NCBI GenBank assembly: GCA_022711755.1
Contig: JAKLEA010000028.1
Coordinates: 3,020 to 67,019 of the forward strand
Source of the DNA: Planctomycetota bacterium
GTDB lineage: Bacteria > Planctomycetota > Brocadiia > SM23-32 > JAKLEA01
DNA length: 64,000 bases
Reading direction: 5' to 3'
This document shows, piece by piece, positions 5,362 through 56,807 of the stretch. Each line of letters opens with the position of its first letter. Within the stretch, counting starts at the first letter, position 1. The translations under genes and the position numbers were made by a program. The notes below the pieces were generated by a model. It did no database searches. It worked only from the letters and a program-made list of their open reading frames with translations, and was not told where the DNA came from.

Positions 5362-5443
5362 AAACAAACGTCTCTGACAGGTCAGGCTATTGTTTCTCCG
5401 CTGTCCCTCCCGCCTGACATTTCGCAGGTGCGGCACATTCGGC

Positions 5444-7231
5444 TTAGAAATAATACCAGATGCTCTCGTAGTCCGTCGCATCCTCGCCAAAGTCTGAAAG
5501 ACGATTAAGGTAGTCCAGTATCGGCACATCTGTTGCCAGGTATGTTTGCAGTCTGGCGATGTTTTTCTCCCACGAATGGAACTCGTAGACTCGCGAGCCG
5601 TCTGGCAGGACTGACACCATGTCCCGGTGCTGATAAGCGCGCAGATAATTTTTGCCCAGCCCCGGGACGTTGTAGACCGGCTCATCGGTACGGCAGAGGC
5701 CGGGCAGCAGGCGACTTTCCTCTTTGACCTCCTGCAGGATGCGCGCTATCGGCACGCGGTATCGCATCGTTTCCGCCTTGCCCTTCGTGGCAAATGTGTA
5801 ATACGGGTCAATGCCGATGCGTCTCAAAAGCATGCGCAGGCGCGCGCTCTCAAACCGCCGAGACGTGAAAAATGTATAGACCAGTTGATTATAAACGCTT
5901 ATTCCACGGCGTTTTATGCGGTCAATTGCCGCCGCCATCTCCGGCGTCACCTCATAGACGTGCTCGACATGCGTGATGACTGCAATATCCCGCCTGCCAA
6001 GCTCACGGCATGAACCAAGAGTGTCCGCCAATTCTTCGGTCACGCGCATGGGCATGGTGACCGGGGTGCGCGTGCCAATTCGGATGATTTCTATCGCGGG
6101 TATGGCGCAGAGCGCATCCAGTATTTCCTTCAGTCGGGCTGTTTCAAGAATCAACGGATCGCCGCCGGTTATCAATACCTGCCGCACGGCAGGATGATCG
6201 GCTATCCACCGGATGGCATCCCTCATGCTCTCGGGAGGCGCAAAAGCGCCCGGAGCCATGACCTGGTCAATCTCCCAGTTGCGCTGACAGTAGACGCAAA
6301 TCTGCGGACAAGTTGACACCGGTTTGAGGATGACGATTGACGGATAACGGCGTGTCACAAAGTCAATCGGAGATGTGTCAGTTTCAAGCATGAAATCACA
6401 CCCGACGCCGTCCGCTCCGCGCTGTTGCGTCATGGCGCGGATGTAGTCGCGCGGTGGAATCACTTGGGCGCGGACGGCATGGTCGCGGCCCAGCGGCTCA
6501 TCGTCCATCAGCGAGGCATAATAGGGGGTGATGCCGAACGGCAGACGGGCGGCGCATGCGTCGGCAATATTGCGGTGTTCCTCCTCGCTTAAGGTCACGA
6601 CCTTTGAAAAGGTCTCAACATCGGAGATTACATGGGCGGTCTGCCATCGCCAGTCGTTCCAGTCGGCTATCGAACCGCCAAACACGTTAAGAATTTTGTT
6701 TCGTCGGAATTGGCGATATTCCGGGATTCCATCATCAAACCCTGACGCATAGCGCGCCATCTTTTCAGCAGTCAATGCCCAAAGATGGTCAAGCTCATCG
6801 CTGCGCAGGATCGCCGCTTCCCGTCCACTCGGCTTGTCGGTCAGCGGGACGTGGTCGTAGCGAAGCGGTCCACGTCCGCGTATTCCGATCACCCAGTGGA
6901 TCAGTTCGGCATAAAATCCTGGCGAAAGGTCGGGGCGGACGGTTCCCGCAGCAATGTCCATGAGCGCCTTCGCGACGCTGAAACCGACGCGGGCGTCGGA
7001 AACACTGCTTAGCGCGGAGCGTAATGCGCGGGAGCAATCGCGCGCTGATATGCGTTCATAGGAAGGTCTGCTAGTATGGTCGCTGATGGTTTCAGCGGCC
7101 ATCCTGTCAGCGTTGGAGCGCAGGCGTTCCCGAACTTCGTCAAGGGATGACGTCTCCTTAACACCGGAAAACAGGTCAACAGCCTCTCGGCGCAATGAGT
7201 CGGCATTGAAATCAGATTCCATGAAAGCCAT
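5444..7231 (-). CDS. KamA-family radical SAM aminomutase (lysine 2,3-aminomutase-like), long form with ~190-aa N-terminal extension
   Basis: 595 aa with a strong SD (GAAGGAGGA just upstream of ATG 7231). Motifs WRWQTAHVI, CxxxCxxC = CPQICVYCQRNW, ITGGDPLIL, IRIGTRTPV. The N-terminal extension matches no family I recognise. Substrate cannot be assigned. Confidence 0.8.
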   Translation of the reverse strand: MAFMESDFNADSLRREAVDLFSGVKETSSLDEVRERLRSNADRMAAETISDHTSRPSYERISARDCSRALRSALSSVSDARVGFSVAKALMDIAAGTVRPDLSPGFYAELIHWVIGIRGRGPLRYDHVPLTDKPSGREAAILRSDELDHLWALTAEKMARYASGFDDGIPEYRQFRRNKILNVFGGSIADWNDWRWQTAHVISDVETFSKVVTLSEEEHRNIADACAARLPFGITPYYASLMDDEPLGRDHAVRAQVIPPRDYIRAMTQQRGADGVGCDFMLETDTSPIDFVTRRYPSIVILKPVSTCPQICVYCQRNWEIDQVMAPGAFAPPESMRDAIRWIADHPAVRQVLITGGDPLILETARLKEILDALCAIPAIEIIRIGTRTPVTMPMRVTEELADTLGSCRELGRRDIAVITHVEHVYEVTPEMAAAIDRIKRRGISVYNQLVYTFFTSRRFESARLRMLLRRIGIDPYYTFATKGKAETMRYRVPIARILQEVKEESRLLPGLCRTDEPVYNVPGLGKNYLRAYQHRDMVSVLPDGSRVYEFHSWEKNIARLQTYLATDVPILDYLNRLSDFGEDATDYESIWYYF

Positions 7232-9552: not shown

Positions 9553-11016
9553 ATGAAACAGCTTTCCAGACGCGAGTTTTTGAGAAAGACAGGTGGCGCG
9601 GCCCTCGGATTGGGTCTGGCGTCGAGTTTCTCAGCCAAGTCATACGCCCAGATCGCGGGCGCGAATGAAGACATCCGGGTGGCGGTCGTGGGCTGCGGCG
9701 GCAAGGGCGCGGATCACGTCAACAGGTTCAGCGGCAAGAAGGGCGTCCGTCTGGTCAAGATTTGCGACGCAGACGCAAGCCACATCAATTCAAGGTTGAT
9801 CATCGCCCGGCTGAAAAGTCCGACATGCGAGGGCGAGCAGGATGTCCGAAAGATTCTTGATGACAAGGGGATTGACGCGATTGTAACGGCGACACCGAAC
9901 CACTGGCACTCGCTGATGGTTGTATGGTCATGCCAGGCGGGGAAGGACATCTACGTCGAGAAACCGGCGACGCACAACATATGGGAAGGCCGCAAGATTC
10001 AGGAGGCGGCGGCAAAGTATAACCGAATTGTGCAGTGCGGCATGCAGCAGAGGTCCAATCCATGCTGGACGCCGGCCTTCCAGTGGGCCAAAGAGGGAAA
10101 TCTGGGAAAGATTCTTTATTCCCGCGGCCTGTGTTACAAGCGTCGCGGCAGCATCGGCAAGGTTGACGGTCCACAGCAGGTTCCGGCGACGGTCAATTAC
10201 GATCTCTGGTGTGGTCCTCGGGAGACCGAGCCGCTGATGCGCAAGAATCTGCATTACGACTGGCACTGGGTATGGCCGACGGGCAATGGCGACATCGGCA
10301 ACCAGGGCGTTCATCAGATGGACGTTGCAGCATGGGCGATCGGTGCGACAGAACTGCCACCGGGAGTCATAAGCGTAGGCGGACGCTTTGGTTACGTTGA
10401 TGACGGTACGACTCCGAACACGCAGTTTGTGGTTCTGGACTACAAGCCAGTTCCCATAATCTTCGAGGTCCGGGGCCTGGCGGATAACAAGGAAACGAAC
10501 GCTGATGCGCATTTCAAGGACACTCCCTATCGCGTAGGGAATATCCTACATTGCGAAGGCGGCTATGTCGTTGAGGGCAGCGCATTCGACAACGACAAGA
10601 AACGTATCAAGACATTCAGTTCCGACGGGGGCGAGGGGCATGACGACAACTTCATCAAGGCTGTGCGCAGCCGGAAGATGTCCGACCTGAACGCCCCGCC
10701 GTTGACCGGGCACATCTCCGCTGCCTGCTGCCACATGGGCAACATCAGTTACCGTGTCGGGCAACAGGCTTCGCCCGATGAGATACGCGAATCGGTCAAG
10801 TATGACTCCGGCGGGCTTGAGACGTTCGAGCGGTTTGTCGAACACCTCAGCAAGAACGGCGTGGACATAGGCAAGGAGAAGGCCATTCTTGGGCCGCACC
10901 TGAAGTTCGATCCGAAGACCGAGCGGTTTGCCGGCAACGGGGCGCTGGACGAGAAGGCCAATGCGTTCCTGAAGGACAGCTACCGGGAACCCTTCGTTAT
11001 TCCGGAGAAGGTCTGA
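9553..11016 (+). CDS. Gfo/Idh/MocA family oxidoreductase with twin-arginine (Tat) signal
   Basis: 487 aa. AAGAGG SD. Tat motif SRREFLRKTGGAALGLG..AKSYA. Rossmann IRVAVVGCGGKGADHV. EKP motif (YVEKPATHN). Confidence 0.85.
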   Translation: MKQLSRREFLRKTGGAALGLGLASSFSAKSYAQIAGANEDIRVAVVGCGGKGADHVNRFSGKKGVRLVKICDADASHINSRLIIARLKSPTCEGEQDVRKILDDKGIDAIVTATPNHWHSLMVVWSCQAGKDIYVEKPATHNIWEGRKIQEAAAKYNRIVQCGMQQRSNPCWTPAFQWAKEGNLGKILYSRGLCYKRRGSIGKVDGPQQVPATVNYDLWCGPRETEPLMRKNLHYDWHWVWPTGNGDIGNQGVHQMDVAAWAIGATELPPGVISVGGRFGYVDDGTTPNTQFVVLDYKPVPIIFEVRGLADNKETNADAHFKDTPYRVGNILHCEGGYVVEGSAFDNDKKRIKTFSSDGGEGHDDNFIKAVRSRKMSDLNAPPLTGHISAACCHMGNISYRVGQQASPDEIRESVKYDSGGLETFERFVEHLSKNGVDIGKEKAILGPHLKFDPKTERFAGNGALDEKANAFLKDSYREPFVIPEKV

Positions 11017-38439: not shown

Positions 38440-39342
38440 ATGGAATTGATAGACAGGATACTGGGCCGCCGGACCGGGTCGGTCTTCGGCGATTATCACG
38501 CCGTGAGAACTATTTACGAGGGGGAGAAATCCCGCGTTTATGAAGGCTCCATGGCGGGAAGCGATGAGACGGTAGCCATCAAGCTATTCACCCCAGCCTA
38601 CGAGCGGACTGTTACGCTGATGACGAAGCGGCACAGGATTCCCTGGGAAGGCGAGGTGGGGATGGCGCTCAATCCGCCGGACGGGGTGGCTGGCGATGAG
38701 TATCCGATAGTCAGAACGATTTTGCACGGGCGTGAGTTCGGCAGGAGAAGCGGGTGCCGCTACATCGTGCTTGAATACGTGCATGGGATAGGATTGAGAA
38801 CGCTGATCCAGAACAGGCACATTATCCTGACGGACATGCGCAGGCAGATCACCTCGCAGCTCTGCCGGGCCTTGGCCCTGATTCACGCAAAGGGCATGAT
38901 TTTCAGGGACGTGAACGCGGAAAATGTCATAGTCCGTCTTGATGGAAGGGTGAAGCTGATTGACCTGGGCTTCGTCGCTCCTTCAGGGATCGTTTTTGAG
39001 GAAAGGGCAGGCACGCCGAGTTACATGTCCCCGGAACAGATAAAGGGCGGGGAATTGCGCCCCGCGACGGACATTTATTCGCTGGGGGCGCTATTCCATG
39101 AGATGGTTTTCGGTAGGCTGCCGTTCACGACGGGGACGGCGGCTGATACGCCGATTCGTGCGCTGCAACGCCGCAATGAGATTATGAAAATGCACTTGGA
39201 AGCAGAGTTGCCGCAGCCGTCTGAGGAAGACGCACGGCTTGCCGGGGGGTTCCTGCCCATCATTCGGCGATGTCTTGCCAAGGAGCCAGATGCCCGTTTT
39301 TCTGACGCGGCGGAGTTGCTTGAAGAGATTGAAAAGCTGTAG
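38440..39342 (+). CDS. Hanks-type Ser/Thr protein kinase (kinase domain only)
   Basis: 300 aa. VAIKLF, FRDVNAENVIV, LIDLGF, GTPSYMSPEQ. Confidence 0.8.
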   Translation: MELIDRILGRRTGSVFGDYHAVRTIYEGEKSRVYEGSMAGSDETVAIKLFTPAYERTVTLMTKRHRIPWEGEVGMALNPPDGVAGDEYPIVRTILHGREFGRRSGCRYIVLEYVHGIGLRTLIQNRHIILTDMRRQITSQLCRALALIHAKGMIFRDVNAENVIVRLDGRVKLIDLGFVAPSGIVFEERAGTPSYMSPEQIKGGELRPATDIYSLGALFHEMVFGRLPFTTGTAADTPIRALQRRNEIMKMHLEAELPQPSEEDARLAGGFLPIIRRCLAKEPDARFSDAAELLEEIEKL

Positions 39343-39452: not shown

Positions 39453-41111
39453 GTGGGAGACCTTTTGCAAACGATTAAGAAAAGAAAAGGATCAGACTGG
39501 TCGGGTCTGCAGGCTTTTCGCGTCACGACCGTCGCAATGGGTTTACTTTTCGTTTTCATTTCAAGCGGCGAGGTTGCGCGGACGGAGCAGCGCGAATTTG
39601 CCCTTGCCGTCAAGATGGCGGACATGGAGCAGGTCGCAGCTTATCTGAAGACGGATCCCGAGCTTGTCAATGCCAACATCAGAGACGGATGGCGTCCGAT
39701 TCACTATGCATGCATTCTTGGGCACATGGACGTTATGAAGCTACTGCTTAATGCCGGCGCCGACTTGAACGCGCAAGGGCCTTTGGGGGTTACGCCATTG
39801 CGGATGGCATTGGATGCCGGCAGGGAGGATATTCTTAACGAGCTTCTGAAGGCTGGGGCGAGTGTGGATATTTTTACTGCCGCCGCCACCGGCAATGCGG
39901 AACTTATGGTCAGAATGATGAAAGGTTTTCCGGAACTGACGAACGCAAAAGATCACAAGGGGCGGACGCCCCTGCACTGGGCGGCGATACGGGGACAGGT
40001 CTCGACCGTACAAATCCTTCTGGCGGCTAAGGCAGACGCCAATGCAAGGGACAACTTACAGAAGACGCCGTTATCTGATGCTGCGCGAGCCGGACATGCG
40101 GAAGTTGTCAGGATTTTGTTGGATGCGCGGGCCGACATCGGATTGAAGTGCGGGCAGACCGGAGGCACGGCGCTTCATTGGGCGGCAGTCGAAGGGCGGG
40201 ACGAGATCGTCCGCCTGCTGCTGGCCCGCGGGGCCGACCCGAATGCGCGCAGCAACGACGGCAAGACCGCGCTGATGGCGGGCGCTTATGCCGGAAAGCC
40301 GGACATCGTCGGGATATTGCTCAAAAACGGCGCGGATCCGAATGCCGCCGACCAGAATTCTGTTACGGCCTTGCATGGCGCGGCCTATTCCGGAGACGTT
40401 GCGCTCTGCAACATTCTTATTGCATGGGGCGCGGATGTGAATGCCCGCCAGAAGGCGGGTTATTCTTCGCTTCACGTGGCTGCGGAAAATTGGAAAAGCC
40501 TTATTGTTGAGACGTTGCTTGAAAACGGAGCGGAACCGGATATCTTTTCCGCTTCGGCGCTTGGCATGAAGGCATTTGTCGCGCAGACTCTTGAGCGTAA
40601 TCCCGAAGCTCTGAACACGGGTGATGTAAATGGATTTACTCCTCTCACGTGGGCCGCCCGGGGCGGTTCCAGGGAGGTTGTGGAATTCCTGCTGGACAAG
40701 GGGGCCGACCCAGGACACGTAAATTCCTCCGGTCAGACGGCGCTTGGAATGGCCGCCACCGGCAGGTTCGCGGAGATCGCCGGCCTGCTGCTTGAACGCG
40801 GCGCTGACGCCAATGCCCGGTCGAAGCAGGCCGCGGATACCCCGCTCTTTGTTTCCGCTACTCTGTCCGACGTTCGCACAGCGCGAGTGTTGATTGACGC
40901 CGGCTCCGATGTGAATGCCAGGAATACGCGGCATTTGACGCCGCTTCATATTGTCGCGTTTTCAGGCACACAAGAGATGGCCGGCCTTTTAATCGAGCGT
41001 GGAGCGGACATTCACGCCCGCAGCGATGCCGGAGCAACTCCTCTGGATATCGCGGCGGATGCTGGAAATACTCCGGTTGCGAGGCTCCTGATGAAAAAAG
41101 GGGCAAGGTAA
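39453..41111 (+). CDS. ankyrin-repeat protein (about 15 repeats) with N-terminal hydrophobic anchor/signal
   Basis: 552 aa with a GTG start in the track (alternative ATG 39537). Repeats of the type G(R/W)TPLH.AA..G...VV..LL..GADVNA throughout. Confidence 0.8.
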   Translation: MGDLLQTIKKRKGSDWSGLQAFRVTTVAMGLLFVFISSGEVARTEQREFALAVKMADMEQVAAYLKTDPELVNANIRDGWRPIHYACILGHMDVMKLLLNAGADLNAQGPLGVTPLRMALDAGREDILNELLKAGASVDIFTAAATGNAELMVRMMKGFPELTNAKDHKGRTPLHWAAIRGQVSTVQILLAAKADANARDNLQKTPLSDAARAGHAEVVRILLDARADIGLKCGQTGGTALHWAAVEGRDEIVRLLLARGADPNARSNDGKTALMAGAYAGKPDIVGILLKNGADPNAADQNSVTALHGAAYSGDVALCNILIAWGADVNARQKAGYSSLHVAAENWKSLIVETLLENGAEPDIFSASALGMKAFVAQTLERNPEALNTGDVNGFTPLTWAARGGSREVVEFLLDKGADPGHVNSSGQTALGMAATGRFAEIAGLLLERGADANARSKQAADTPLFVSATLSDVRTARVLIDAGSDVNARNTRHLTPLHIVAFSGTQEMAGLLIERGADIHARSDAGATPLDIAADAGNTPVARLLMKKGAR

Positions 41112-41152: not shown

Positions 41153-43141
41153 ATGAAAGTTGCGATGAAAACCCGGGCCGAGTCGCTTGACAACCTGGGT
41201 TCTGCAAAAAAAGTCGCGGTGATCGTCTGCAAGCGATGTTTTCACGAGTTTGAAAAGGACGCGGCCGACGATCTTGATATCGCGCTGGAGACGCTGGCTA
41301 ATGCCGGCGTCGAAGCGGTCGTCAGCATGGAGGCTGATTTCCTGTGCAACTCACGCGTCGCCGCCAGAATGCTCGAGGGGGGGGTGTCAGAAGGATTTGA
41401 CGCGGTTGTGACGCTTTGTGGCGCAGGCGCGCAGGTTGTCGCGGGACTGAGCGGGAAGACCCCGGTCATTCTGCTTGGGAACGCCCGGCCGGAAAGGGGA
41501 TTCGAGGGGATATCGCTGGGCGTCAAACGGTGCATGGCGTGCGGGAAATGCCTGTTAAACCTGACGGGGGGAATCTGCCCGGTTGCGGACTGCGCCAAGA
41601 GCCTTTCCAACGGTCCTTGCGGCGGGGCGAAGGATGGCAAATGCGAGGCGAATGCCGAGAAGGATTGCGCATGGATCAGGATTTACAAACGATTGAAGGA
41701 GCAGGGGAGGCTCGACGCTCTCAAAGGCGATGTTCAGGATCGCGATTTCTCCCGTCCGTTGTTTGCCGAGGTAAAGAAGATTGAAGACAAGGCTCTGGAA
41801 AGGCGCGAGACGGGATTCGCGGGCGGGCTTTACCCGCTTGAGAACAAGGATGGGCATTCGGATCTCGCGATTGAGACGTTGCCCGATCCGCAGATCGCCG
41901 TTGTCCCGATGGCGCAGCACGTAGGCGCGCCCTGCGAATCGCGCGTAGCTGTTGGCGACGCGGTCAGCATCGGGCAGGAAATAGGCGGGAGCACGGGTTA
42001 TGTGTCTTCCGCTATCCATGCCCCGATAAGCGGGAAGGTTGTCGCCGTGGAGAAACGCCCGCACCCGACAATTCCCGGCGACGTTCTGTCCGTTGTCATT
42101 GAAAACGATGGAAAGTCGTCTCTGCATGAGTCCTGCGCGCCGCGCAGGGAGCCGGATTCCATGACCCCTGAGGAAATAATTGATGTCATCAGGCGCAGCG
42201 GAATTGTCGGGATGGGCGGCGCGATGTTTCCGACGGACGTCAAGCTCAAACCGCCCAGGCCGGTTGATCTGCTTATTCTGAACGGTTGCGAATGCGCTCC
42301 GCACCTGACGGCCGATGACCGGTTGATGGTGGAGAAGAGCGCGGAGATCGTCGGCGGGGCGAAGTTTCTGGCGAAGGCTCTGGGCGTAGGAAAGGTGATA
42401 ATCGCCATTGAGAATAACAAGTCCCTTGCCCTTGAGAGGATGAAGGAAGCGGCGGGGGACGCGGCAGAGGTCATTTCCGTCACGACAAAATACCCGCAGG
42501 GCGCGGAGCGGATGCTCATCAAGCGCCTGACGGGGCGCGACGTGCCGCGCGGCGGGTTGCCGTTCGAGGTTGGCGCGGTGGTCAACAACGTCGGCACGGC
42601 GCTGGCGGTCTATGAGGCGGTTGTCCTCGGCATGCCCCTGATCAGCCGCGTGATTACGGTTTCCGGGATGGACATTCCGAAACCAGGCAATTATCGCGTG
42701 AAGATCGGGACGCGCATACGCGACGTTCTGAATGCTGTCGGCGCGGCAAATCCAGACGCCATGCTTTCCGGACGGACGGTAAGGATGGGCGGGGGGATGA
42801 TGGGCGTTATTCAGACAAACGCTGACGCTCCGATCATCAAAGGCGCGTCGGGACTTATAGTTCTGGAAACATCTGACATAGCGCCCGACGATGCCCGGAA
42901 GTGCATTCGATGCGGACGCTGCGTCGAGGCGTGTCCGATGGGGCTTGAGCCGCACAGGCTCTGGCGTCACGTTAAGGACGAGAACTGGGAAATGGTCGAG
43001 CAACTCGGCTGCAACGACTGTTTTGATTGCGGGTGCTGCGAATACATCTGCTCGTCGAAACTGCCGCTGGTTGCGATGTTCAAGCGCGGCAAGGCAGCTT
43101 TGCGGAGGAAGAAAGATGCTGGTAACCCGGTTAAAGCCTGA
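41153..43141 (+). CDS. fusion protein: MetV-type (MTHFR C-terminal zinc-ribbon-like domain) N-terminal module plus RnfC-type NADH/FMN/FeS module
   Basis: 662 aa. SD GAGAGGAAA. MetV part: CMACGKCLLNLTGGICPVADCAKSLSNGPCGGAKDGKCE..KDCAWIRIYKRLKEQGRLD. RnfC part: GGLYPLENK, PMAQHVGAP, GIVGMGGAMFPT, LILNGCECAPHLTADDRLM, CIRCGRCVEACP, CFDCGCCEYICS. Confidence 0.8.
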   Translation: MKVAMKTRAESLDNLGSAKKVAVIVCKRCFHEFEKDAADDLDIALETLANAGVEAVVSMEADFLCNSRVAARMLEGGVSEGFDAVVTLCGAGAQVVAGLSGKTPVILLGNARPERGFEGISLGVKRCMACGKCLLNLTGGICPVADCAKSLSNGPCGGAKDGKCEANAEKDCAWIRIYKRLKEQGRLDALKGDVQDRDFSRPLFAEVKKIEDKALERRETGFAGGLYPLENKDGHSDLAIETLPDPQIAVVPMAQHVGAPCESRVAVGDAVSIGQEIGGSTGYVSSAIHAPISGKVVAVEKRPHPTIPGDVLSVVIENDGKSSLHESCAPRREPDSMTPEEIIDVIRRSGIVGMGGAMFPTDVKLKPPRPVDLLILNGCECAPHLTADDRLMVEKSAEIVGGAKFLAKALGVGKVIIAIENNKSLALERMKEAAGDAAEVISVTTKYPQGAERMLIKRLTGRDVPRGGLPFEVGAVVNNVGTALAVYEAVVLGMPLISRVITVSGMDIPKPGNYRVKIGTRIRDVLNAVGAANPDAMLSGRTVRMGGGMMGVIQTNADAPIIKGASGLIVLETSDIAPDDARKCIRCGRCVEACPMGLEPHRLWRHVKDENWEMVEQLGCNDCFDCGCCEYICSSKLPLVAMFKRGKAALRRKKDAGNPVKA

Positions 43142-43751
43142 GGAAGAGATCGCCGGGCTGATGCCTTCGAGGATACTGGTCATGCACTGCCGCGGCTGCA
43201 GCGAGGTGCATTTTCCTTACAAGTCTGCGCGGAAGATGGTCGCGGAGTTGCGCGCGAAGAATGTCGAGGTCGTCGGGGAATTGACGACGGACTATCTCTG
43301 CAACGCGGACTTTGTGAAACAACGGTTGGCCCGTCGCGCAGAAGATGTTGAGAGAGCGGAGGCTATACTGGTTTTCTCTTGCGGGGTCGGTGTTCAGCAG
43401 GTCGGCGACCTTGCCGGCAAACCGGTCTATACGGGCTGCGACACGATACGCATCGGGGGTTACCAGGGGCTTTCCCCGAAGAAGCTCGATTGCCTGCGCT
43501 GCGGGGATTGCGTCCTGACGTTCACGGGCGGAATCTGCCCGGTGGCCAACTGCGCGAAGTCGCTGGTCAACGGGCCGTGCGGCGGGGCGTCAAAGGGCAA
43601 GTGCGAGATTGATCCGGATAAGGATTGCGCGTGGATGCTCATCTACAAGCGCCTCAAGGAGCAGGGGAGGCTTGACGTGATGAGCAGGTTCATTGAACGC
43701 GATTACTCGAAAATCACGGCCGTGGCAAACTTGAGCAAGGGCGGCAAGTGA
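43116..43751 (+). CDS. metV: MetV-type protein (methylene-THF reductase C-terminal-domain protein), free-standing paralog
   Basis: ORF track starts at 42891 inside the upstream gene. ATG 43116 follows GGAGGAAG. Motifs CLRCGDCVLTFTGGICPVANCAKSLVNGPCGGASKGKCE..KDCAWMLIYKRLKEQGRLD. Confidence 0.75.
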   Translation: MLVTRLKPEEEIAGLMPSRILVMHCRGCSEVHFPYKSARKMVAELRAKNVEVVGELTTDYLCNADFVKQRLARRAEDVERAEAILVFSCGVGVQQVGDLAGKPVYTGCDTIRIGGYQGLSPKKLDCLRCGDCVLTFTGGICPVANCAKSLVNGPCGGASKGKCEIDPDKDCAWMLIYKRLKEQGRLDVMSRFIERDYSKITAVANLSKGGK

Positions 43752-43779
43752 TGCGCGGACTGCCGAAGGAGCGACAAAA

Positions 43780-45705
43780 ATGAGCAAACTGCGGGAATCA
43801 CTGGAAAGCGGAAAGTTCACATACACAGGAGAAATCGGTCCCCCGAAGGGCACGAACATCGGGCCGGTTCTTCACGAGGCGGAGCAGTTTCTGAAGGATA
43901 GAGTGACCGCCGTCAACGTCACTGACATTCAGACCGCCGTCATGCGTTTCGGTTCGATGGCGGCCTGCCACATGCTTCTGGACAGAGGCATTGAGCCGGT
44001 GTTCCAGATGGTCTGTCGGGACAGGAACCGTCTGGCTCTGCAAAGCGATCTCCTGAGCGCCGCCGGTCTGGGCATTGAGAACGTGCTGGCGATCACAGGC
44101 GATCACGTCCTGATGGGCGACCACAAGGAGGCCATGCCGGTCTATGACCTGGACAGCGTCAGCCTGCTCAAGGCCATGACGAACCTTGAGAACGGCATGG
44201 ACATGGGGCGCGACGCCAAGGGCAAGCCGAACAAGTTGGACGGCGCGCCGAAATTCTTCAAGGGCTGTGTGGTGACGCCGTGCGCCGACGAGGTCGAGCC
44301 GCAGATCATCAAGCTTGAGAAGAAGGTTGCGGCGGGGGCGCAGTTCGTCCAGACGCAGGCCGTCTACGATCCGGTGTCGTTCGAAGAGTTCGTCAAGAGC
44401 GCAAGCCATATCAAGGTTCCGATCCTTGTCGGAATCGTGGTTCTGAAGAGCGCGGGCATGGCGAAATACATGAACAAGTCCGTGCCTGGCGTGCAGGTTC
44501 CGGACAAGCTCATCAAGCGGCTGACCGACGCGGGGAAAAAGGATGTTGAACGCGTGGCGGCGGAGATCGCAGGAGAACTGATCCGCGAGATGAAGGGAAT
44601 GTGCGCCGGCGCGCACATCATGACCCTCGGATGGGATCACCTTGTGCCCGGCATAGTCGAGATTGCTGAGTCCGGGACGACCTCATCGAGCAGCATCGCG
44701 GTTCCGGTGTCGGGACTCAAGACCGGCGAGGCGCAGATCATTGACGGCGAAGCAATTGCCGCGCAGAGAACCGAAAAGCTTAAGATAGAGGTGGCCGAAC
44801 TCAGACAGAAGGGGATTGTTCCGCACCTGAAGGCAGTTCAGGCGGGGGAGAATCCCGCGTCCGCGATCTACGTCAGCAATCAGAAAAAGACATGTGAAGC
44901 CGTCGGGATTGACTACACGCTCATACAGTTGCCGGAAACGGCGGCGCGCGACGACATCGCGCAGAAGATAGCCGAGTTGAACGAGGATATGGGTACGACG
45001 GGAGTCATTCTTCAGATGCCTCTTCCGCCGGGCGTTGATTCGCGCGAGATGCAGGCCCTGATAGCCCCGCATAAGGATATCGAGGGCATCAATCCGGCCA
45101 ATCTGGGCCGGTTGCTGGCCAACAAGCGAGATGGCGGTCCCTGCACGGCGGTTGGCGCGTTTGAACTGCTGCTGTCCACCGGCGTCGAGCTTCAGGGCAA
45201 GAATGCCGTCGTGGTCGGGCACAGCGAGATCGTTGGCAAACCGATGGCGCTGATGCTTCTGGGCGCGAACTGCACGACGAGCGTCTGTCACGTCTTCACG
45301 AAGGACATGCGTCCGCTCGTGAAGGAGGCGGACATATTGGTTGTCGCGGCGGGCAAGTCGCAGGCGCTCTGGCTGCGCTACCAGAAGATCAGGAAGGAAG
45401 ATCCGAAGACGCCGATTCCTGACCTGTCGCCCCTGATTCCCGCCGACATGATAAAGCCGGGAGCAGTCGTCATTGACATCGCAATCAACCGGATACCGAA
45501 ACGCCTGAAGGAGAACGGCAGACCGGTCAAGAGCAAGAAAACCGGCAAGCCGATCATGGTCACGATGGGCGATGTGGATTTTGAGGGCGCGAAGAGCGTC
45601 GCGTCATGGATCACGCCGGTTCCAGGCGGCGTCGGGCCGATGACGGTCAACATGCTTCTGACCAATACGGTCTATCGCTGCAAGGCGCAGCATGGACTGG
45701 TGTAG
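43780..45705 (+). CDS. fusion protein: MetF-type methylene-THF reductase plus FolD (methylene-THF dehydrogenase / methenyl-THF cyclohydrolase)
   Basis: 641 aa. SD GAAGGAG. MetF part: FTYTGEIGPPKG, VNVTD, MVCRDRNRLALQSDLLSAAGLGIENVLAITGDH. Linker ESGTTSSSSIAVPVSGLKTGEAQ (44668-44736). FolD part: IIDGEAIAAQ, NPASAIYVSNQKK, GVILQMPLP, HKDIEGINP, VVVGHSEIVGKPMALMLL, TPVPGGVGPMTV. Confidence 0.8.
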   Translation: MSKLRESLESGKFTYTGEIGPPKGTNIGPVLHEAEQFLKDRVTAVNVTDIQTAVMRFGSMAACHMLLDRGIEPVFQMVCRDRNRLALQSDLLSAAGLGIENVLAITGDHVLMGDHKEAMPVYDLDSVSLLKAMTNLENGMDMGRDAKGKPNKLDGAPKFFKGCVVTPCADEVEPQIIKLEKKVAAGAQFVQTQAVYDPVSFEEFVKSASHIKVPILVGIVVLKSAGMAKYMNKSVPGVQVPDKLIKRLTDAGKKDVERVAAEIAGELIREMKGMCAGAHIMTLGWDHLVPGIVEIAESGTTSSSSIAVPVSGLKTGEAQIIDGEAIAAQRTEKLKIEVAELRQKGIVPHLKAVQAGENPASAIYVSNQKKTCEAVGIDYTLIQLPETAARDDIAQKIAELNEDMGTTGVILQMPLPPGVDSREMQALIAPHKDIEGINPANLGRLLANKRDGGPCTAVGAFELLLSTGVELQGKNAVVVGHSEIVGKPMALMLLGANCTTSVCHVFTKDMRPLVKEADILVVAAGKSQALWLRYQKIRKEDPKTPIPDLSPLIPADMIKPGAVVIDIAINRIPKRLKENGRPVKSKKTGKPIMVTMGDVDFEGAKSVASWITPVPGGVGPMTVNMLLTNTVYRCKAQHGLV

Positions 45706-45779: not shown

Positions 45780-46868
45780 ATGATTTCCGGCAAGGAAAAC
45801 TACCAAAGGGCGATTGAGTTCCGCTCGCCGGAGCGGTTGCCGATATTCATACAGTGTTCCTTCAACGGATTGCGCGAGAGGAATCCGGAGAAGGAGCGCC
45901 GCATTTTCGAACTGCAATCGCGCATCCCCGACGATATCGTCATGTTCAACGAGGCCCCGCCGTTTCTCGCGGAGCCGAGGACCGAGGGCGGGGCGACTCG
46001 CTGGACCGACCAGTGGGGAACCGGCTGGATCAGCGCCGGGCACGGCAACAAGACCGAGCGATATCCCCTCGAAGCCGGATATCACCTGCTGAAGGACTAT
46101 GTCCTGCCTGATCCGCATGACCGGGGGCGTTTCGCGAAGCCTGACGAAATTCTTTCGAAAAGGGGTGATCGCTACGCTCTTGCGATGGTCTGGTTCACGC
46201 TTTTCGAGCGGCTCTGGATGCTGCGCGGATTCGAGAATATGCTGACCGATCCCTACGATAACGAGGATGGTTTCTGCGCGCTTCGCGACCGCATTGTTGC
46301 CTACAACCTCGCCATGATTGATCAGTGGCTTGAGCGCGGGGTTGACGGTATTTACTTCTCGGACGACTGGGGTTGCCAGAGGGGGTTACTGATAAATCCG
46401 GACGATTGGAGGAAATGGTATAAACCTTCCTACGACAAGATGTTCCGACGAGTCCATGATGGCGGGGCGTGCGTCTGGATGCACCTTTGCGGGGATATTA
46501 CCCCGATCCTGCCGGACCTGATCGAGCTTGGTCTTCAGGTTCTCAACCCGGTTCAGCCGCAGGCTATGGACATCCGGCAACTTGCGCGGGATTTCGGGGG
46601 GAGGTTGTGCTTCTTCGGCGGCGTGGATGTGCAGGGAACGCTCATCCGCGGAACGCCGGAGGATGTGAAGCGGGAGGCGCGGGAATTGGTTGAGTTGTTT
46701 GGCATGTGTTCTAGTCCGGCGGGTTCAGCTTCCGCGTGTGCAAGACCTTCGGTCTCGCACACCCTACGGGGGTACCGCGGCGGCTACATCGCTGGAACGA
46801 GCCATACCATCATGCCAGAGACGCCGCTGGATAATATTATTGCGATGTACGAATCGTTTGTTGACTGA
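45780..46868 (+). CDS. uroporphyrinogen-decarboxylase (URO-D) family protein (MtaA/CmuA-like fold; function unknown)
   Basis: ORF track starts at 45606. I prefer ATG 45780. URO-D-family C-terminal pattern VDVQGTLIRGTPEDVKREARELVELFG...GGYIAGTSHTIMPETPLDNIIAMYE. It contains a 75-nt in-frame segment (46704-46778) that carries an intergenic-type hairpin repeat. Confidence 0.65.
   Translation: MISGKENYQRAIEFRSPERLPIFIQCSFNGLRERNPEKERRIFELQSRIPDDIVMFNEAPPFLAEPRTEGGATRWTDQWGTGWISAGHGNKTERYPLEAGYHLLKDYVLPDPHDRGRFAKPDEILSKRGDRYALAMVWFTLFERLWMLRGFENMLTDPYDNEDGFCALRDRIVAYNLAMIDQWLERGVDGIYFSDDWGCQRGLLINPDDWRKWYKPSYDKMFRRVHDGGACVWMHLCGDITPILPDLIELGLQVLNPVQPQAMDIRQLARDFGGRLCFFGGVDVQGTLIRGTPEDVKREARELVELFGMCSSPAGSASACARPSVSHTLRGYRGGYIAGTSHTIMPETPLDNIIAMYESFVD
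46736..46767 (+). repeat. REP-like hairpin element ending in CACCCTAC (copy C), located inside a coding sequence
   Basis: GTGTGC-a-AGACC-TTC-GGTCT-c-GCACAC at 46736-46762, followed by CCTAC. Same core and tail as intergenic copy B. Confidence 0.6.
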
Positions 46869-52154: not shown

Positions 52155-52957
52155 ACCGCATTGATCTCCGATTCCAGGAATTGCGGCGCAAGAGAGAGCC
52201 GGCATTCATCCCGTACCTCACCGCGGGCGATCCGGACATGCATGCGACTCGCGAGCTTATACTCGAAGCGGAGAGGCGAGGGGCTGACCTGATCGAGCTA
52301 GGCGTTCCTTTCAGCGATCCGATTGCCGACGGGCCGGTGATTCAGGCATCTCATCTCCGCGCGCTGGAGGGCGGGACGCGCGTCGGCGACGTTCTGGCAA
52401 TGGTCAGGGAAGTCAGGAATACCAGCGAGATCCCGATTGTGGCCATGATTTCGTGTAGCATTGTCTTCCGCAAAGGCGCGGACGGATTCATCCGCTCGAT
52501 GGCGGAGGCCGGGATTGACGGGGCGACGATTCCAGACCTGCCGGTCGAGGAAGCTGGGCAGGCGCGCGACGCCGCCGACAGGGCCGGACTACACCTCGCG
52601 CCGTTTGTCACGCCTACTACGACAATCAAACGGCAGGAGGCTATCTGCAGGGCCGCCCGAGGGTTCATTTACTACATATCCGTTGTGGGATTAACCGGGG
52701 CCAGAGAACAGCTCGCGGGTGATTTGAAGGCCAATGTAGACCGAATCCGCGCGGCGGCGAAGGTTCCCGTGGCCGTCGGGTTCGGCGTGTCCAGGCCGGA
52801 GCATGCAAGGGAGGTTGGCGCGGTATCGGACGGCGTTATCGTAGGCAGCGCGCTGGTGCGCCTTATAAGCGAGAATGCGGGCGCGGGAATAGCGACGCTA
52901 CGGTCCCGATTCGGGGACGCGGTTGGACAACTTTCTTCAGCCGCGAAGCAGCGATGA
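52151..52957 (+). CDS. trpA: tryptophan synthase alpha chain
   Basis: 268 aa. The start overlaps the trpB stop (ATGA). [43 protein letters not shown]. Confidence 0.95.
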
Positions 52958-54135
52958 GAATGTCGCCACAGACGTTGCTTGCAACCGTCGGTCTTGTGGC
53001 AGACGGAGAGATCGGGAGCGGCGTTGCCGCGAGGGCGATATCGGAATCGCTTTCAGAATCGGGCGACAATTCCGTGCCGTCGCTTCGTGAAGCCCTGATC
53101 GAAGCCGGCGTAGTTCATCGCAAGTTGGAGGACTACCTGGAGCGCAGCCGGTTCAGTCTTCACGCCTGCTCAAAATGCAGGAAGACATATCGGATTCGAG
53201 ATGGGGAGGAGTCAGACGGGGCAAAGTGTCCGGATTGCGGCGTCAGGCTTGCATCCCTGAGCGTGGGGAAAACACCTCCGGCGGCGCTGGCTGCAGATTC
53301 CGGGACAACTTACAGGATTTCTGCAGGAAGGCGTTTTGGACATTTTCTGCTTGATCGCAGGATCGGCAAGGGTGGATACGCCGGGGTATATCTTGCCCGC
53401 AACGAGCGCGCGGACAGGATCGTTGCCCTCAAAATCTTCGATAATTCCGGAGACCTATCGCCTGAGCATTTCATGCGAGGCTTCCAGCGCGAGACCAAGG
53501 CGGGAATGCGTCTGAACCATCCCAATATAGTGCGCGTCTACGACTACGGATGGGCCGGGAAGATGCCATACATTGAGATGGAGTTTATTGACGGGGAGAG
53601 CCTGGCGGACCGGGTTGACAGGGGAGGCGCGATTGAGCCGCGCGAGGCTGCAAGGATCGTTGCCGCATCCGCGCGAGCGCTGCACTTCGCGCACGGCAAG
53701 GGGATCATCCATCGAGACGTAAAGCCGCAGAACATTCTGCTCTCCAGAACGGGCGAAGTGAAGGTCTCTGATTTCGGATTGGCTAAGTTAAGCGATCCGG
53801 ACGTCAGTTCAACCAGCAAGCCGACGCTGGTCGGGACGCCGATGTACATGTCCCCCGAGCAGTGCCGATTTGAGAAACTGAACGGCCGTTCGGACATCTA
53901 CTCGCTTGGACTTGTTCTTTATTACGCGCTGTCAGGGCGTTTGCCGTATCCGGAAGGTTCGCTGATAAGCCTGATTCACGCGCAGATTTCGCAGACTCTG
54001 CCGCCGTTGCCCGCGCGGGCTGGGGCGGACATGGAGCCGTTTGAGAAAATTCTGACAAGGGCAACAACTAAGAAGTCGGAACGAAGGTATGAGACTGCCG
54101 GACGGATGGCGGACGACCTGCAAAGCCTGTTGTAG
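52954..54135 (+). CDS. Hanks-type Ser/Thr protein kinase with N-terminal zinc ribbon
   Basis: 393 aa. ATG 52954 overlaps the trpA stop (ATGA). Ribbon CSKC..(16)..CPDC. Kinase motifs GKGGYAGVYLA, VALKIF, HRDVKPQNILL, VSDFGLA, GTPMYMSPEQ. Confidence 0.85.
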   Translation: MRMSPQTLLATVGLVADGEIGSGVAARAISESLSESGDNSVPSLREALIEAGVVHRKLEDYLERSRFSLHACSKCRKTYRIRDGEESDGAKCPDCGVRLASLSVGKTPPAALAADSGTTYRISAGRRFGHFLLDRRIGKGGYAGVYLARNERADRIVALKIFDNSGDLSPEHFMRGFQRETKAGMRLNHPNIVRVYDYGWAGKMPYIEMEFIDGESLADRVDRGGAIEPREAARIVAASARALHFAHGKGIIHRDVKPQNILLSRTGEVKVSDFGLAKLSDPDVSSTSKPTLVGTPMYMSPEQCRFEKLNGRSDIYSLGLVLYYALSGRLPYPEGSLISLIHAQISQTLPPLPARAGADMEPFEKILTRATTKKSERRYETAGRMADDLQSLL

Positions 54136-54210
54136 CCTCAGGAGAAGGCCGATATCATTGCGAGTGTCTGGCGATTGTCCTTTTTCATAAAACTATTTCA
54201 GGATTCAAGG

Positions 54211-55917
54211 ATGCGTCAAGAAAATACGAGCGGCGATGTCAACATTGTCATCGGCGGAGAAGCGGGGCAGGGGCTGGTCACCGTAGGAGACATCCTGTCC
54301 AAGACTGTTGTCCGCGCGGGATACTCGATGGTTGTCACGCAGAGCTACATGTCCCGCATTCGCGGAGGGCACAACACATACTGCATTCGGGCGGGGATTG
54401 ATGAGCTCCAGGCTCCGCGCGAGTCTGTTGACGTCCTTGTCGCGATGAACGACGAAACCGTTGGGCTGCACAGGGGGGAGATGACGAACAGGGGATGCGT
54501 GATTATTGATGGAAAGTCGAAGGTTTCATCCGATGGTCTTGCAAGGCTTGCTGTGCCATTCTCTGAGTTGTCAGACAAACGGTATTTCAACATCGCGGCA
54601 TTGGGGGTGGTCGCCTCGCTGATCGGACTTGATGAGGAGCTGACGGCGGGGGCCGTTGATGACGCTTTCGGCAGGAAGCATCCGGAGTCCGTGGAGGCGA
54701 ACCGCGCCGCCCTGGCAAAGGCTTATGACTGGATGAAATCGCGCCGGTTGCCGGGACTTGTCCTGCCCCCGCCCCGACGTTCCGGCGGACGGATTGTCAT
54801 GAACGGCAATCAGGCGATTGCGCTTGGGGCATTGTCGGCGGGGGTGAAGTTCTGCGCCTTCTACCCGATGACGCCGGCGACCTCGATCGTTCTGAGTCTG
54901 GCGGCGGCGGATCAGAGGATGGGCGTTGTCGTCGAGCAGGCTGAGGACGAAATCGCCGCGATCAACATGGCCATCGGCGCCTCTTTCGCCGGAGCGCCGA
55001 GTATGGTCGCCACGTCCGGGGGCGGTTTTGCCCTGATGACGGAGGGCGTCAGCCTTGCCGGGATAACCGAGACGCCGATTCTGATAGCAGTTGCGATGAG
55101 ACCGGGGCCTGCCACTGGGTTGCCGACTCGTACGGCGCAGGGGGACCTTGAATTTGTCCTGCATTCCGGCCACGGCGAATTTCCGCGCGCGGTATTCGCG
55201 CCTTGCAATGTGGCGGAATGCTTCCACCTGACGCGCGGGGCGATGAAATTGGCTGAAAAATATCAAAGCCCGGTATTTATACTCACCGACCAGTTCATGG
55301 CGGATTCAAGCCGTGCCGTCGAACCTTTCGCTCTGGACGGGCTGGACACAGTTAATCCCGGCGCAATTCCGGAAAGTTTTAACGGGCTATATAAACGATA
55401 CGCGCTGACGCAGTCCGGCGTCTCGCTCCGGTTGCTGCCCGGAATAAGCAGAAACCTGGTTGTCGCGGACAGCGACGAACATACGGAAGAAGGTCATATT
55501 ACGGAGGATTTGGCTGTCCGGGTGGCAATGGCTGATAAGAGGAGCCGGAAGCTCGGTGGAATCACATCAGAAGTCATTCCGCCGCAATACGTCGGCGACG
55601 AGACTCCAGAGCTTCTGTTTGTCACGTGGGGATCGAGTTCTGGCTCGGTCCTGGAAGCGGCGGAGGTTCTGAGGGCGGGGGGGCGCAAGGTTGGAACACT
55701 GTGCTTCTCGCAGGTCTGGCCACTGGTTCCAGAACAGTTTGTTGAGAGATTGGAGAAGGCTCTGCGGGTTGTCGGAGTCGAGGGCAACGCGACGGGGCAG
55801 TTCTGCCGCCTGATACGGCGCGAAACTGGATTTGAGATCAGGGATCGCGTGCTGCGCTATGACGGCCTGCCCGTAACGCCGGAATTCGTGCTTGCCGGAC
55901 TCGGCAAAGTTGATTAA
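54211..55917 (+). CDS. 2-oxoacid:ferredoxin (acceptor) oxidoreductase, fused gamma/alpha subunit
   Basis: ORF track starts at TTG 54175. I prefer ATG 54211. The N-terminal gamma-like segment VNIVIGGEAGQGLVTVGDIL is followed by the alpha domain (GNQAIALGALSAGVKFCAFYPMTPAT, ATSGGGFALM). Substrate not assignable. Confidence 0.8.
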   Translation: MRQENTSGDVNIVIGGEAGQGLVTVGDILSKTVVRAGYSMVVTQSYMSRIRGGHNTYCIRAGIDELQAPRESVDVLVAMNDETVGLHRGEMTNRGCVIIDGKSKVSSDGLARLAVPFSELSDKRYFNIAALGVVASLIGLDEELTAGAVDDAFGRKHPESVEANRAALAKAYDWMKSRRLPGLVLPPPRRSGGRIVMNGNQAIALGALSAGVKFCAFYPMTPATSIVLSLAAADQRMGVVVEQAEDEIAAINMAIGASFAGAPSMVATSGGGFALMTEGVSLAGITETPILIAVAMRPGPATGLPTRTAQGDLEFVLHSGHGEFPRAVFAPCNVAECFHLTRGAMKLAEKYQSPVFILTDQFMADSSRAVEPFALDGLDTVNPGAIPESFNGLYKRYALTQSGVSLRLLPGISRNLVVADSDEHTEEGHITEDLAVRVAMADKRSRKLGGITSEVIPPQYVGDETPELLFVTWGSSSGSVLEAAEVLRAGGRKVGTLCFSQVWPLVPEQFVERLEKALRVVGVEGNATGQFCRLIRRETGFEIRDRVLRYDGLPVTPEFVLAGLGKVD

Positions 55918-55955
55918 TCGGAGATTGATTCCCGAAAAAGGGAGGAAGATAGAAG

Positions 55956-56807
55956 ATGGCGACTGCTGAAGACTTCGGAAATTACGAGACAGCGTGGTGT
56001 CCCGGATGCGGCAACTTTTCAATTCTGAAAGCGCTGAAGAAGGGACTGGCGGACGCGGGACTGGAGCCTCATCAGGTTCTAATGGTCTCCGGCATCGGCC
56101 AGGCCGCAAAGACGCCCCATTACATCAACTCCAATGTGTTTAATGGTCTGCATGGGCGTTCGCTTCCGACAGCCACCGGCGCAAAGCTGGCCAATCCAGA
56201 CTTGACGGTGATTGCCGAGAGCGGCGACGGATGCAACTACGGAGAGGGCGGGAACCACTTCCTGGCCGCCATCCGGCGCAATATTGACGTGACGCTGCTG
56301 GTCCATAACAATCAGATTTACGGGCTGACGAAAGGGCAGGCAAGCCCGACCACTCCCGAAGGCTATGTGACGAAGGCCCAACCGCATGGCGTGATGCTGG
56401 AGCCATTCAATCCCGTGGCGACGGCTGTGCTGTTGAGAGCGGGATTTGTTGCGCGCGGATTTTCAGGAATGATTGACCACCTGGCGGATTTGATCGTTCA
56501 GGCCATACGGCACAAGGGCTTATCCCTCGTGGACATCCTCCAGCCGTGCGTGTCATTCAACAACGTCAACACGTTTGCATGGTACAAGAAGCGCTGTTAC
56601 AAACTGCCCGGAGATTACGATCCGACTGATTGGAATGCCGCGCTGGCAAAGGCCGAGGAATGGGGCGACAGGATTCCCATCGGGGTTCTTTACAGCAATG
56701 AAAGACAATCACTCGACAGGCATTATGTGGAACTGGGATGTGCGCGCGGGATAAACTCCCAGACCGATATGAGGGAATTGGGTGAGATCATGAGAAAATA
56801 CGCCTGA
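55956..56807 (+). CDS. 2-oxoacid:ferredoxin (acceptor) oxidoreductase, beta (TPP-binding) subunit
   Basis: 283 aa. [55 protein letters not shown]. Confidence 0.85.

Follow-up and report, generated by a model that had tools for sequence, protein, structure and literature searches.

Gene Organization of the Locus

The DNA analyzed here is a stretch of 64,000 nucleotides (hereafter the 64-kb window) from contig JAKLEA010000028.1 of a Planctomycetota bacterium, in which three genes of the forward strand appear to encode a methylene-tetrahydrofolate (THF) reductase whose MetF subunit is joined to a FolD-like domain. Gene 1, rnfC2 (41153-43141, + strand, 662 aa), was assigned the role of NADH-input subunit in a methylene-THF reductase of type III, considering its Pfam and NCBIfam matches, its homologs and its gene order. 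Gene 2, metV (43116-43751, + strand, 211 aa), encodes the small Fe-S subunit (PF12225, 107.6 bits), while gene 3 (43780-45705, + strand, 641 aa) is a metF::folD fusion contained in one stop-free open reading frame (ORF). Genes 1 and 2 overlap by 26 nt (43116-43141), and 28 nt (43752-43779) separate gene 2 from gene 3. An earlier reading of the window, made from its sequence alone, had described three packed same-strand genes with this overlap and this gap, and the ORF coordinates agree; the domains that it assigned to the three genes were likewise recovered, as profile searches hit all the named families with scores far beyond chance. The overlap between gene 1 and metV suggests translational coupling. 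A scan for promoters and terminators between 38.3 and 48.6 kb returned counts no higher than those of shuffled sequence and is thus uninformative about the limits of the operon. Overall, we consider it likely that the three genes encode a type III (Acetobacterium woodii-type) NADH-dependent methylene-THF reductase with a FolD-like domain tethered to MetF.

The RnfC2 and MetV Subunits

The product of gene 1 consists of a MetV-like N-terminal domain (41153-41797, + strand, aa 1-215), with PF12225 at aa 124-199 (97.9 bits), and an RnfC module (41813-43141, + strand, aa 221-662) that contains RnfC_N (222-321, 99.8 bits), the NADH/FMN-binding Complex1_51K domain (346-488, 156.5 bits), SLBB (500-552) and a Fer4 dicluster (580-636), the latter being a 2x[4Fe-4S] ferredoxin domain. 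The NCBIfam model TIGR01945 (rnfC) matched aa 221-654 with 486.5 bits against a cutoff of 246. PF12225 was the only Pfam family found in gene 2, and its product is paralogous to the N-terminal domain of gene 1 (43% identity over 188 aa, E = 5e-43). The start of gene 2 was chosen by the length of its homologs, which have 206-211 aa at the equivalent position, and a GGAGGA motif lies upstream of it; an alternative start at 43182 was called by a second gene caller.

A collection of 5.8 billion proteins yielded 6817 matches to gene 1 at E <= 1e-10. PF12225 and the RnfC domains occur together in all of the 120 homologs listed (the best 120 of 6817), which mostly have ~650-700 aa, with one of 823 aa, and include proteins from Blautia, Lachnospiraceae, Endomicrobiia and metagenome-assembled genomes (MAGs) of Planctomycetota. 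The window RnfC2 shares ~45-47% identity with the Lachnospiraceae homologs. Moreover, the order rnfC2-metV-metF is kept in the related loci L005, L007, L009, L023, L030 and L046 and in the Blautia locus L090, and in the nearest relatives (51-54% identity) and the Blautia example rnfC2 encodes 654-660 aa, metV 206-211 aa and metF 292-298 aa.

The closest known system is the RnfC2/MetV/MetF reductase of A. woodii (Awo_c09290-09310; Bertsch et al. 2015, as summarised in PMC8760232 and PMC3315566). Its RnfC2 has a 220-aa N-terminal MetV-like domain that distinguishes it from RnfC1 (Poehlein et al., PMC3315566) and that was also reported by Öppinger et al. (PMC8760232), and its purification yielded RnfC2, MetF and MetV at 1:1:1 in an enzyme that uses NADH to reduce methylene-THF (PMC8760232); besides this activity and stoichiometry, FMN and about six [4Fe-4S] clusters characterize the type III enzyme. 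The window resembles the A. woodii system in having an RnfC2 in which a MetV-like N-terminal domain of ~215-220 aa is followed by an RnfC-type module with NADH/FMN-binding and 2x[4Fe-4S] parts, a separate MetV, and a tightly packed rnfC2-metV-metF order, so that the content of two MetV units is equal. The sequence-only reading was therefore right to recognize an Acetobacterium-type reductase module, with which both domains and gene order agree, but not to regard it as rebuilt, with one MetV fused to RnfC and a second MetV left free, nor to regard this two-MetV architecture as new, since the A. woodii enzyme is already built in this way (PMC3315566; PMC8760232). Considering that A. woodii has both the MetV-like domain and a separate MetV and that the 120 listed homologs of gene 1 all combine PF12225 with the RnfC domains, genes 1 and 2 are canonical for a type III enzyme, for which a MetV-RnfC protein plus a free MetV is textbook knowledge.

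The MetF::FolD Fusion and Its Integrity

Gene 3 departs from the A. woodii system, in which folD stands by itself 5' of rnfC2, as the window MetF carries a C-terminal FolD-like domain. The MetF domain, a methylene-THF reductase (MTHFR) TIM barrel, occupies 43780-44664 (+ strand, aa 1-295), where PF02219 covers aa 3-294 and profile positions 1-284 of 287 with 128.7 bits against a cutoff of 24. It is not a stand-alone protein, since it constitutes the N-terminal 295 of 641 aa, a length comparable with the entire MetF of the relatives. The motifs 'AITGD', with the catalytic Asp, and 'VQTQ', with the substrate-binding Gln, align with 'ALRGD' and 'IITQ' of human MTHFR, and the domain has 70-77% identity to unfused MetFs from Planctomycetota MAGs. 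Its closest sequences are single-chain MetF-MetV reductases (PF02219 plus PF12225, such as P0123, 530 aa, 70% identity), which are also fused at the C-terminus of MetF, although to the Fe-S subunit MetV and not to FolD. A sequence search of the PDB with the MetF half returned distant eukaryotic MTHFRs alone (E ~1e-7) and no close solved homolog. The MetF domain is followed by a Ser/Thr/Ala-rich linker (44665-44739, + strand, aa 296-320), which continues in frame into a FolD-like methylene-THF dehydrogenase domain (44740-45705, + strand, aa 321-641) matched by PF00763 (321-435, 113.7 bits) and, in two stretches, by PF02882 (178.9 bits).

Neither a stop codon nor a change of frame interrupts the DNA of the junction, which is also free of homopolymer runs. 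An identical 641-aa product was called on 7 contigs. These come from three or more assemblies, whose contigs follow three naming styles, that is, JGI 3300009838 (Ga0116153), ENA ERZ761563 (SPAdes-style NODE_) and ENA ERZ27257456 (MEGAHIT-style k141_), the ERZ27257456 contig k141_113380 having 193,840 bp; the contigs L001 and L002 had 0 mismatches with the window over 21.9 kb. An AlphaFold2 (AF2) model of gene 3, built on a 90-sequence alignment, has two confident domains, with a mean predicted local distance difference test (pLDDT) score of 90.6 and values mostly above 90 in MetF; the linker has low pLDDT, and scores below 50 are restricted to aa 108-115 and to linker residues 301-315. In other fused lineages the linker differs in both length and sequence.

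A Non-canonical FolD Domain

The FolD half of gene 3 scored below every NCBIfam FolD equivalog cutoff, the best being NF008058 with 269.3 bits against 355, and all FolD models among the 25 families listed for gene 3 (24/24) were below cutoff. Alignment of the active site reveals that Gln368 (nt 44881-44883) takes the place of E. coli Lys54 (human Lys56), the window having NPASAIYVSNQKKTCE where the reference has NPASQIYVASKRKACE, so that the YxxxK motif is replaced by 'YVSNQ', compared with 'YVASK' in E. coli (1B0A) and 'YVAHK' in Pseudomonas aeruginosa (4A5O). In addition, Glu435 (nt 45082-45084) is found at the position of Asp121 (human D125), reading 'KDIEG' versus 'KDVDG', while Gln98 ('ILQMPLP') and Tyr50 are kept. 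Accordingly, the description of gene 3 as MetF joined through a Ser-rich linker to a full FolD is correct for the fusion and for the completeness of the FolD domains, but not for the canonical residues. The NAD(P) domain also bears two insertions, one of ~24 residues at ~aa 528-551 (~45361-45432) and another of ~18 residues within aa 570-602 (~45490-45585). Both insertions also occur in the 'long FolDs' (~355 aa) of Planctomycetota, and the AF2 model predicts them with confidence, as a helix at aa 526-540 and extra strands.

In the cyclohydrolase reaction the lysine acts as general acid/base, while the aspartate positions the pterin (PMC3338484), and the K54N variant of E. coli FolD has undetectable cyclohydrolase and ~19% of the dehydrogenase activity (PMC5688156). 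Given the exchange of the catalytic Lys for Gln and of the pterin-binding Asp for Glu, the fused domain is predicted, with moderate confidence, to be a methylene-THF dehydrogenase without cyclohydrolase activity. The two exchanges define what we call the Q/E type, which goes well beyond this gene. In 178 FolD-like sequences gathered here, a biased sample, the Y/Q/Q/E signature was present in 87 and the canonical Y/K/Q/D in 77, the remaining 14 being other variants, and among L010-L088 every metF-linked FolD in loci of the Phycisphaerae or Omnitrophota type had Gln at the Lys position and Glu at the Asp position. Moreover, fchA, which encodes a separate cyclohydrolase, lies directly 5' of the Q/E-type folD in 17/17 Omnitrophota-type loci that extend upstream, in the order fhs-fchA-folD-metF-cooS-acsB (the fchA of L066 matches PF04961 with 171 bits). 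This suggests that the large Q/E-type subfamily is a dehydrogenase-only class, a subfamily for which no description was found in the literature. fchA was found neither in the 64-kb window nor in the Phycisphaerae-type loci with Q/E-type FolDs; there, the cyclohydrolase step may be encoded elsewhere or be spontaneous, or the dehydrogenase-only prediction may be wrong.

Rarity and Origin of the Fusion

Fusions of MetF with FolD are rare. A word-indexed search of the 5.8-billion-protein collection retrieved only two further full-length MetF-FolD proteins, P0121 (642 aa) and P0122 (664 aa), both with ~60% identity to gene 3, and when 1.84 billion cluster representatives were scanned exhaustively with HMMER, one more fused representative emerged, P0241 (607 aa, 48% identity, 524 bits), all the other listed HMMER matches to gene 3 being through a single domain. 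From a scan of 185,579 species genomes, the best 80 loci were kept for ORF analysis; two of them, L010 and L012, both from Phycisphaerales MAGs, had single-ORF fusions, while metF followed by a separate folD was seen in 15, mostly labelled Phycisphaerae or Planctomycetota, and folD followed by metF in about 20 loci of the Omnitrophota type. ORF calls of L012 (CAWAWB010000004.1) need caution because fhs is in four frame-shifted pieces and metF in two (5115-6862 and 10001-10901), breaks which look like indel errors of the assembly. Our literature search found no paper on a MetF-FolD or MTHFR-FolD fusion, nor on MetV in Planctomycetota or Omnitrophota, and a survey of the FolD family published in 2024 has no FolD fusions except with formyl-THF synthetase (FTHFS) (PMC11064299). 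The claim that the fusions of this locus had not been described is therefore contradicted for gene 1, whose architecture is common and already characterised, and stands for gene 3. A comparable arrangement is that of the eukaryotic C1-THF synthase MTHFD1, in which FolD is likewise fused to an enzyme that acts one step away in folate one-carbon metabolism, although there FolD is N-terminal and joined to FTHFS, on the oxidised side, whereas in the window it is C-terminal and joined to the MTHFR, on the reduced side.

The fusions of the Phycisphaerales (L003, L004, L010, which is PMYD01000029, and L012, together with P0121 and P0122) have, like that of the window, the order MetF-linker-FolD from N to C terminus, a long Q/E-type FolD with the same insertions, metV directly upstream and ~60% identity overall. 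In contrast to the window, their linker is ~17 residues longer and they form a clade of their own. They also differ in their electron-input gene, which in L003, L004, L010 and L012 encodes a 691-aa Fer4_20/Pyr_redox_2/Fer4/FlpD protein (an NfnB/GltD-like flavoprotein with an MvhD/FlpD domain) in place of RnfC2, with fhs adjacent, before the flavoprotein gene; NfnB/FlpD-like genes were searched for among the window ORFs and none was found. The in-frame fusions of these four loci and P0241, which comes after a MetV of 237 aa, lie directly 3' of metV wherever the contig reaches upstream.

Bootstrapped neighbor-joining trees (200 replicates, not maximum-likelihood), calculated apart for the MetF and FolD halves, recovered the L003/L004/L010/L012 group as monophyletic in 200/200 replicates for both halves, and the window fusion joined this group in 0/200. 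In the FolD tree, unfused long FolDs surround the group (199/200). The idea that the window and the L010 clade inherited one ancestral fusion was rejected, given the absence of joint monophyly in both halves and the different electron modules upstream. The plain neighbor-joining tree would also place the window MetF within the clade of RnfC2-associated MetFs, a placement that is not claimed here, given its bootstrap of 5-35/200. Since the fusions are not monophyletic and have different input modules, the simplest reading of the trees and gene orders is that an adjacent metF-folD pair was probably fused on at least three independent occasions; one ancient fusion followed by several fissions would be less parsimonious. 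The locus L046, from a Candidatus Brocadiia MAG, has the order rnfC2-metV-metF-folD-fhs with metF and folD unfused and ~50 nt apart, which plausibly represents the pre-fusion state of the window order, and the window fusion probably arose when metF lost its stop codon in an ancestral operon of the order rnfC2-metV-metF-folD.

Pathway Context

Unlike the A. woodii cluster, that of the window is not linked to fhs or fchA, although an RnfC2-type module is found inside full Wood-Ljungdahl clusters in the relatives L007 and L025. Gene 3 is followed, 77 nt further 3', by a gene of the URO-D family (45783-46868, + strand; PF01208, 81 bits), which is MtaA/CmuA-like and need not be part of the module. 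The MtaA and CmuA models match it below their cutoffs, its closest solved structure is MtaA 4AY7 (E = 3e-7), and its first ~146 residues have no Pfam match. A URO-D gene next to metF was not conserved in the relatives examined.

Proposed Mechanism and Alternative Explanations

The activities, the electron path, the channelling, the cofactor preference and the physiological direction of genes 1-3 are inferred. As in the purified A. woodii enzyme, NADH would be oxidised by RnfC2 at its FMN/Complex1_51K module, from where the electrons would pass through the Fe-S clusters of the RnfC2 ferredoxin domain, the MetV-like N-terminal domain and the free MetV to the flavin of MetF, at which methylene-THF and methyl-THF would be interconverted. 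The tethered FolD would use NAD(P)(H) to supply methylene-THF in the reductive direction or to remove it in the oxidative one, and the flexible linker of ~20 residues would set a 1:1 stoichiometry and a proximity that keep the labile methylene-THF local. With FolD on the C-terminus of MetF, a single polypeptide would thus carry out two redox steps in succession, from methenyl- through methylene- to methyl-THF, and channelling of methylene-THF between MetF and FolD is plausible. A wider proposal, which we advance only tentatively and consider possible without favoring it, is that the recurrent fusion, having occurred at least three times in Planctomycetota-related lineages with different input modules, tethers a dehydrogenase-only FolD to MetF as a dedicated two-step channelling reductase from methenyl- to methyl-THF, and that Q/E-type FolDs are a widespread, so far unrecognized class of monofunctional dehydrogenases in Wood-Ljungdahl methyl-branch clusters, accompanied by FchA where a cyclohydrolase is required.

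Several observations weigh against the assignment of the locus as a type III reductase with a tethered FolD. Homologs of fhs, acsB, cooS, acsE and fchA were searched for among the window ORFs and none was found, as had already been noted for fhs and acs/cooS, nor were they present in the 10 kb beyond one end of the window, where only housekeeping or unknown genes occur. The nearest RnfC2 homolog among the matches listed is only 54% identical, and in the Q/E type a different residue could sustain the cyclohydrolase reaction. The AF2 model has a predicted template modelling (pTM) score of 0.56 and no defined MetF-FolD interface, so that without inter-domain geometry it gives channelling no structural support. 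An internal GTG located 11 codons 5' of the FolD core makes separate translation of FolD conceivable, although no Shine-Dalgarno motif precedes it. Finally, the three assemblies are identical over the compared regions and may have been built from common reads or sampled from a single series of reactors.

This last point also bears on whether the fusion is an artefact of assembly or sequencing, in which a lost stop codon or an indel joined genes that are really separate, as they are in most relatives. Most related Planctomycetota loci do have adjacent but separate metF and folD, in some of them 10-20 nt apart or overlapping (L014, L018 and L046), a spacing so short that a single base error could join the two genes, and the contigs that match the window over 21.9 kb possibly derive from common reads. 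Nevertheless, we regard an artefact as highly unlikely, considering that the 641-aa product recurs on 7 contigs in assemblies of three naming styles, that three other lineages hold independent in-frame fusions of their own, and that the window linker (~20-25 codons) exceeds the spacer of unfused relatives, is rich in Ser, Thr and Ala like natural linkers and has no homopolymer. Even less credible is a reading of gene 1 as the usual RnfC subunit of the membrane Rnf complex, with metV and metF as incidental neighbors. Homologs of gene 1 are named 'electron transport complex subunit RsxC' in databases, and it passes the TIGR01945 cutoff and the RsxC equivalog cutoff of NF003454 (442.9 bits versus 345); however, no rnfA, B, D, E or G flanks gene 1, whose neighbors are an ankyrin-repeat gene (5') and metV (3'), its MetV-like N-terminal domain is what marks RnfC2 apart from RnfC1 (PMC3315566), the rnfC2-metV-metF triad is kept across phyla and the 26-nt overlap is suggestive of coupling with metV.

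Two further alternatives concern the function of the reductase and carry more weight. The fused FolD would be a normal bifunctional dehydrogenase/cyclohydrolase if the exchanges of Lys for Gln and Asp for Glu were compensated, which would be in agreement with the completeness of both Pfam FolD domains, with the retention of Gln98, Tyr50 and a Lys two residues after the Gln, and with the lack of a separate fchA in the window and in the Phycisphaerae-type loci with Q/E-type FolDs. We find this rather unlikely, as K54N abolishes the cyclohydrolase of E. coli FolD (PMC5688156), which also has a Lys two residues downstream without rescue of the variant, as fchA directly precedes the Q/E-type folD in each of the 17 loci of the Omnitrophota type with sequence further upstream, and as the two exchanges co-vary as a family signature (87 versus 77 sequences, with 14 others). 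A mainly oxidative use of the module, from methyl-THF through methylene-THF to methenyl-THF, in methyl-group catabolism fed by a corrinoid-dependent methyltransferase instead of reductive CO2 fixation, is somewhat less doubtful and deserves consideration, even though we do not favor it. A. woodii is reported to run its type III reductase in reverse on methanol and methyl groups, the MtaA/CmuA-like URO-D gene lies 77 nt downstream on the same strand, and the locus differs from L007, L025 or L046 in having no fhs or CODH/ACS (carbon monoxide dehydrogenase/acetyl-CoA synthase) genes nearby. On the other hand, the URO-D gene falls below every MtaA/CmuA cutoff and is not conserved beside metF in any relative, neither a corrinoid protein nor a pterin-binding methyltransferase was seen among the window ORFs scanned, and the copy of the module in relatives lies within complete Wood-Ljungdahl clusters. 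A type III reductase with a tethered FolD-like domain remains our preferred explanation of the locus, in either direction of use.

Significance and Related Loci

Within the Wood-Ljungdahl pathway, the reduction of methylene-THF is the step whose energetics are contested. The locus extends the A. woodii-type NADH-dependent reductase to uncultured Planctomycetota and suggests that, in a few lineages, selection repeatedly joined the preceding dehydrogenase to MetF. What is new here is the MetF::FolD fusion, a rare and apparently recurrent variant of a known enzyme with a non-canonical FolD, which represents an incremental advance and not a new system. Besides, the natural MetF::FolD chimera is a ready-made construct for addressing channelling and dehydrogenase-only function, and could possibly be useful in engineering synthetic reductive one-carbon pathways.

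Other arrangements were observed in the related loci. In Planctomycetota MAGs, a gene for a ~690-aa Fer4_20/Pyr_redox_2/Fer4/FlpD (MvhD-like) protein is located directly 5' of metV-metF in L003 (6937-9012) and in 16 other loci (L010, L012, L014, L017, L022, L024, L027, L028, L032, L035, L037, L041, L042, L044, L047 and L053), with fhs before it in seven of these loci. With its MvhD domain, this single NfnB/GltD-like flavoprotein is a candidate for the electron-input module and is unlike those of the four MTHFR types of PMC8760232. In L011, L019, L021 and L040, which belong to MAGs labelled Phycisphaerae or Anaerolineales, genes for the small and large subunits of a NiFe-hydrogenase and a maturation-protease-like ORF lie between fhs and metV-metF-folD (Pfam confirmed the small and the large subunit in one locus each, L019 and L021), which hints at an H2-linked MetVF reductase.

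Other Features of the Window

Besides housekeeping genes and genes for the degradation of polysaccharides, the remainder of the window encodes Ser/Thr kinases, a protein with ankyrin repeats and a 2-oxoacid:ferredoxin oxidoreductase. A scan of the 64 kb for tRNAs found none. Its aspartyl-tRNA synthetase has at most 60% identity to any other protein in the databases and its named best matches are Planctomycetota, which points to a deep planctomycete lineage without close sequenced relatives. In a scan of the GTDB species representatives, the species of the window was not among them, the best match having 76-77% identity in the best-matching segment.

Immediately 5' of rnfC2, an ORF at 39453-41111 (+ strand) encodes a 552-aa protein formed almost wholly of ankyrin repeats (Ank, 294 bits, at least 9 repeats), which is unusual in a bacterium. 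Ser/Thr protein kinase genes are present at 791-2767 (- strand), 38440-39342 (+ strand) and 52954-54135 (+ strand), one of the kinases being fused to an FGE-sulfatase (formylglycine-generating enzyme-like) domain, and such a set is typical of Planctomycetota-like genomes. About 8.5 kb 3' of the module, at 54175-56807 (+ strand), two genes encode a 2-oxoacid:ferredoxin oxidoreductase, with POR, POR_N and PFOR_II domains in the first and TPP_enzyme_C and PFO_beta_C in the second, an enzyme that could supply or consume reduced ferredoxin in this organism.

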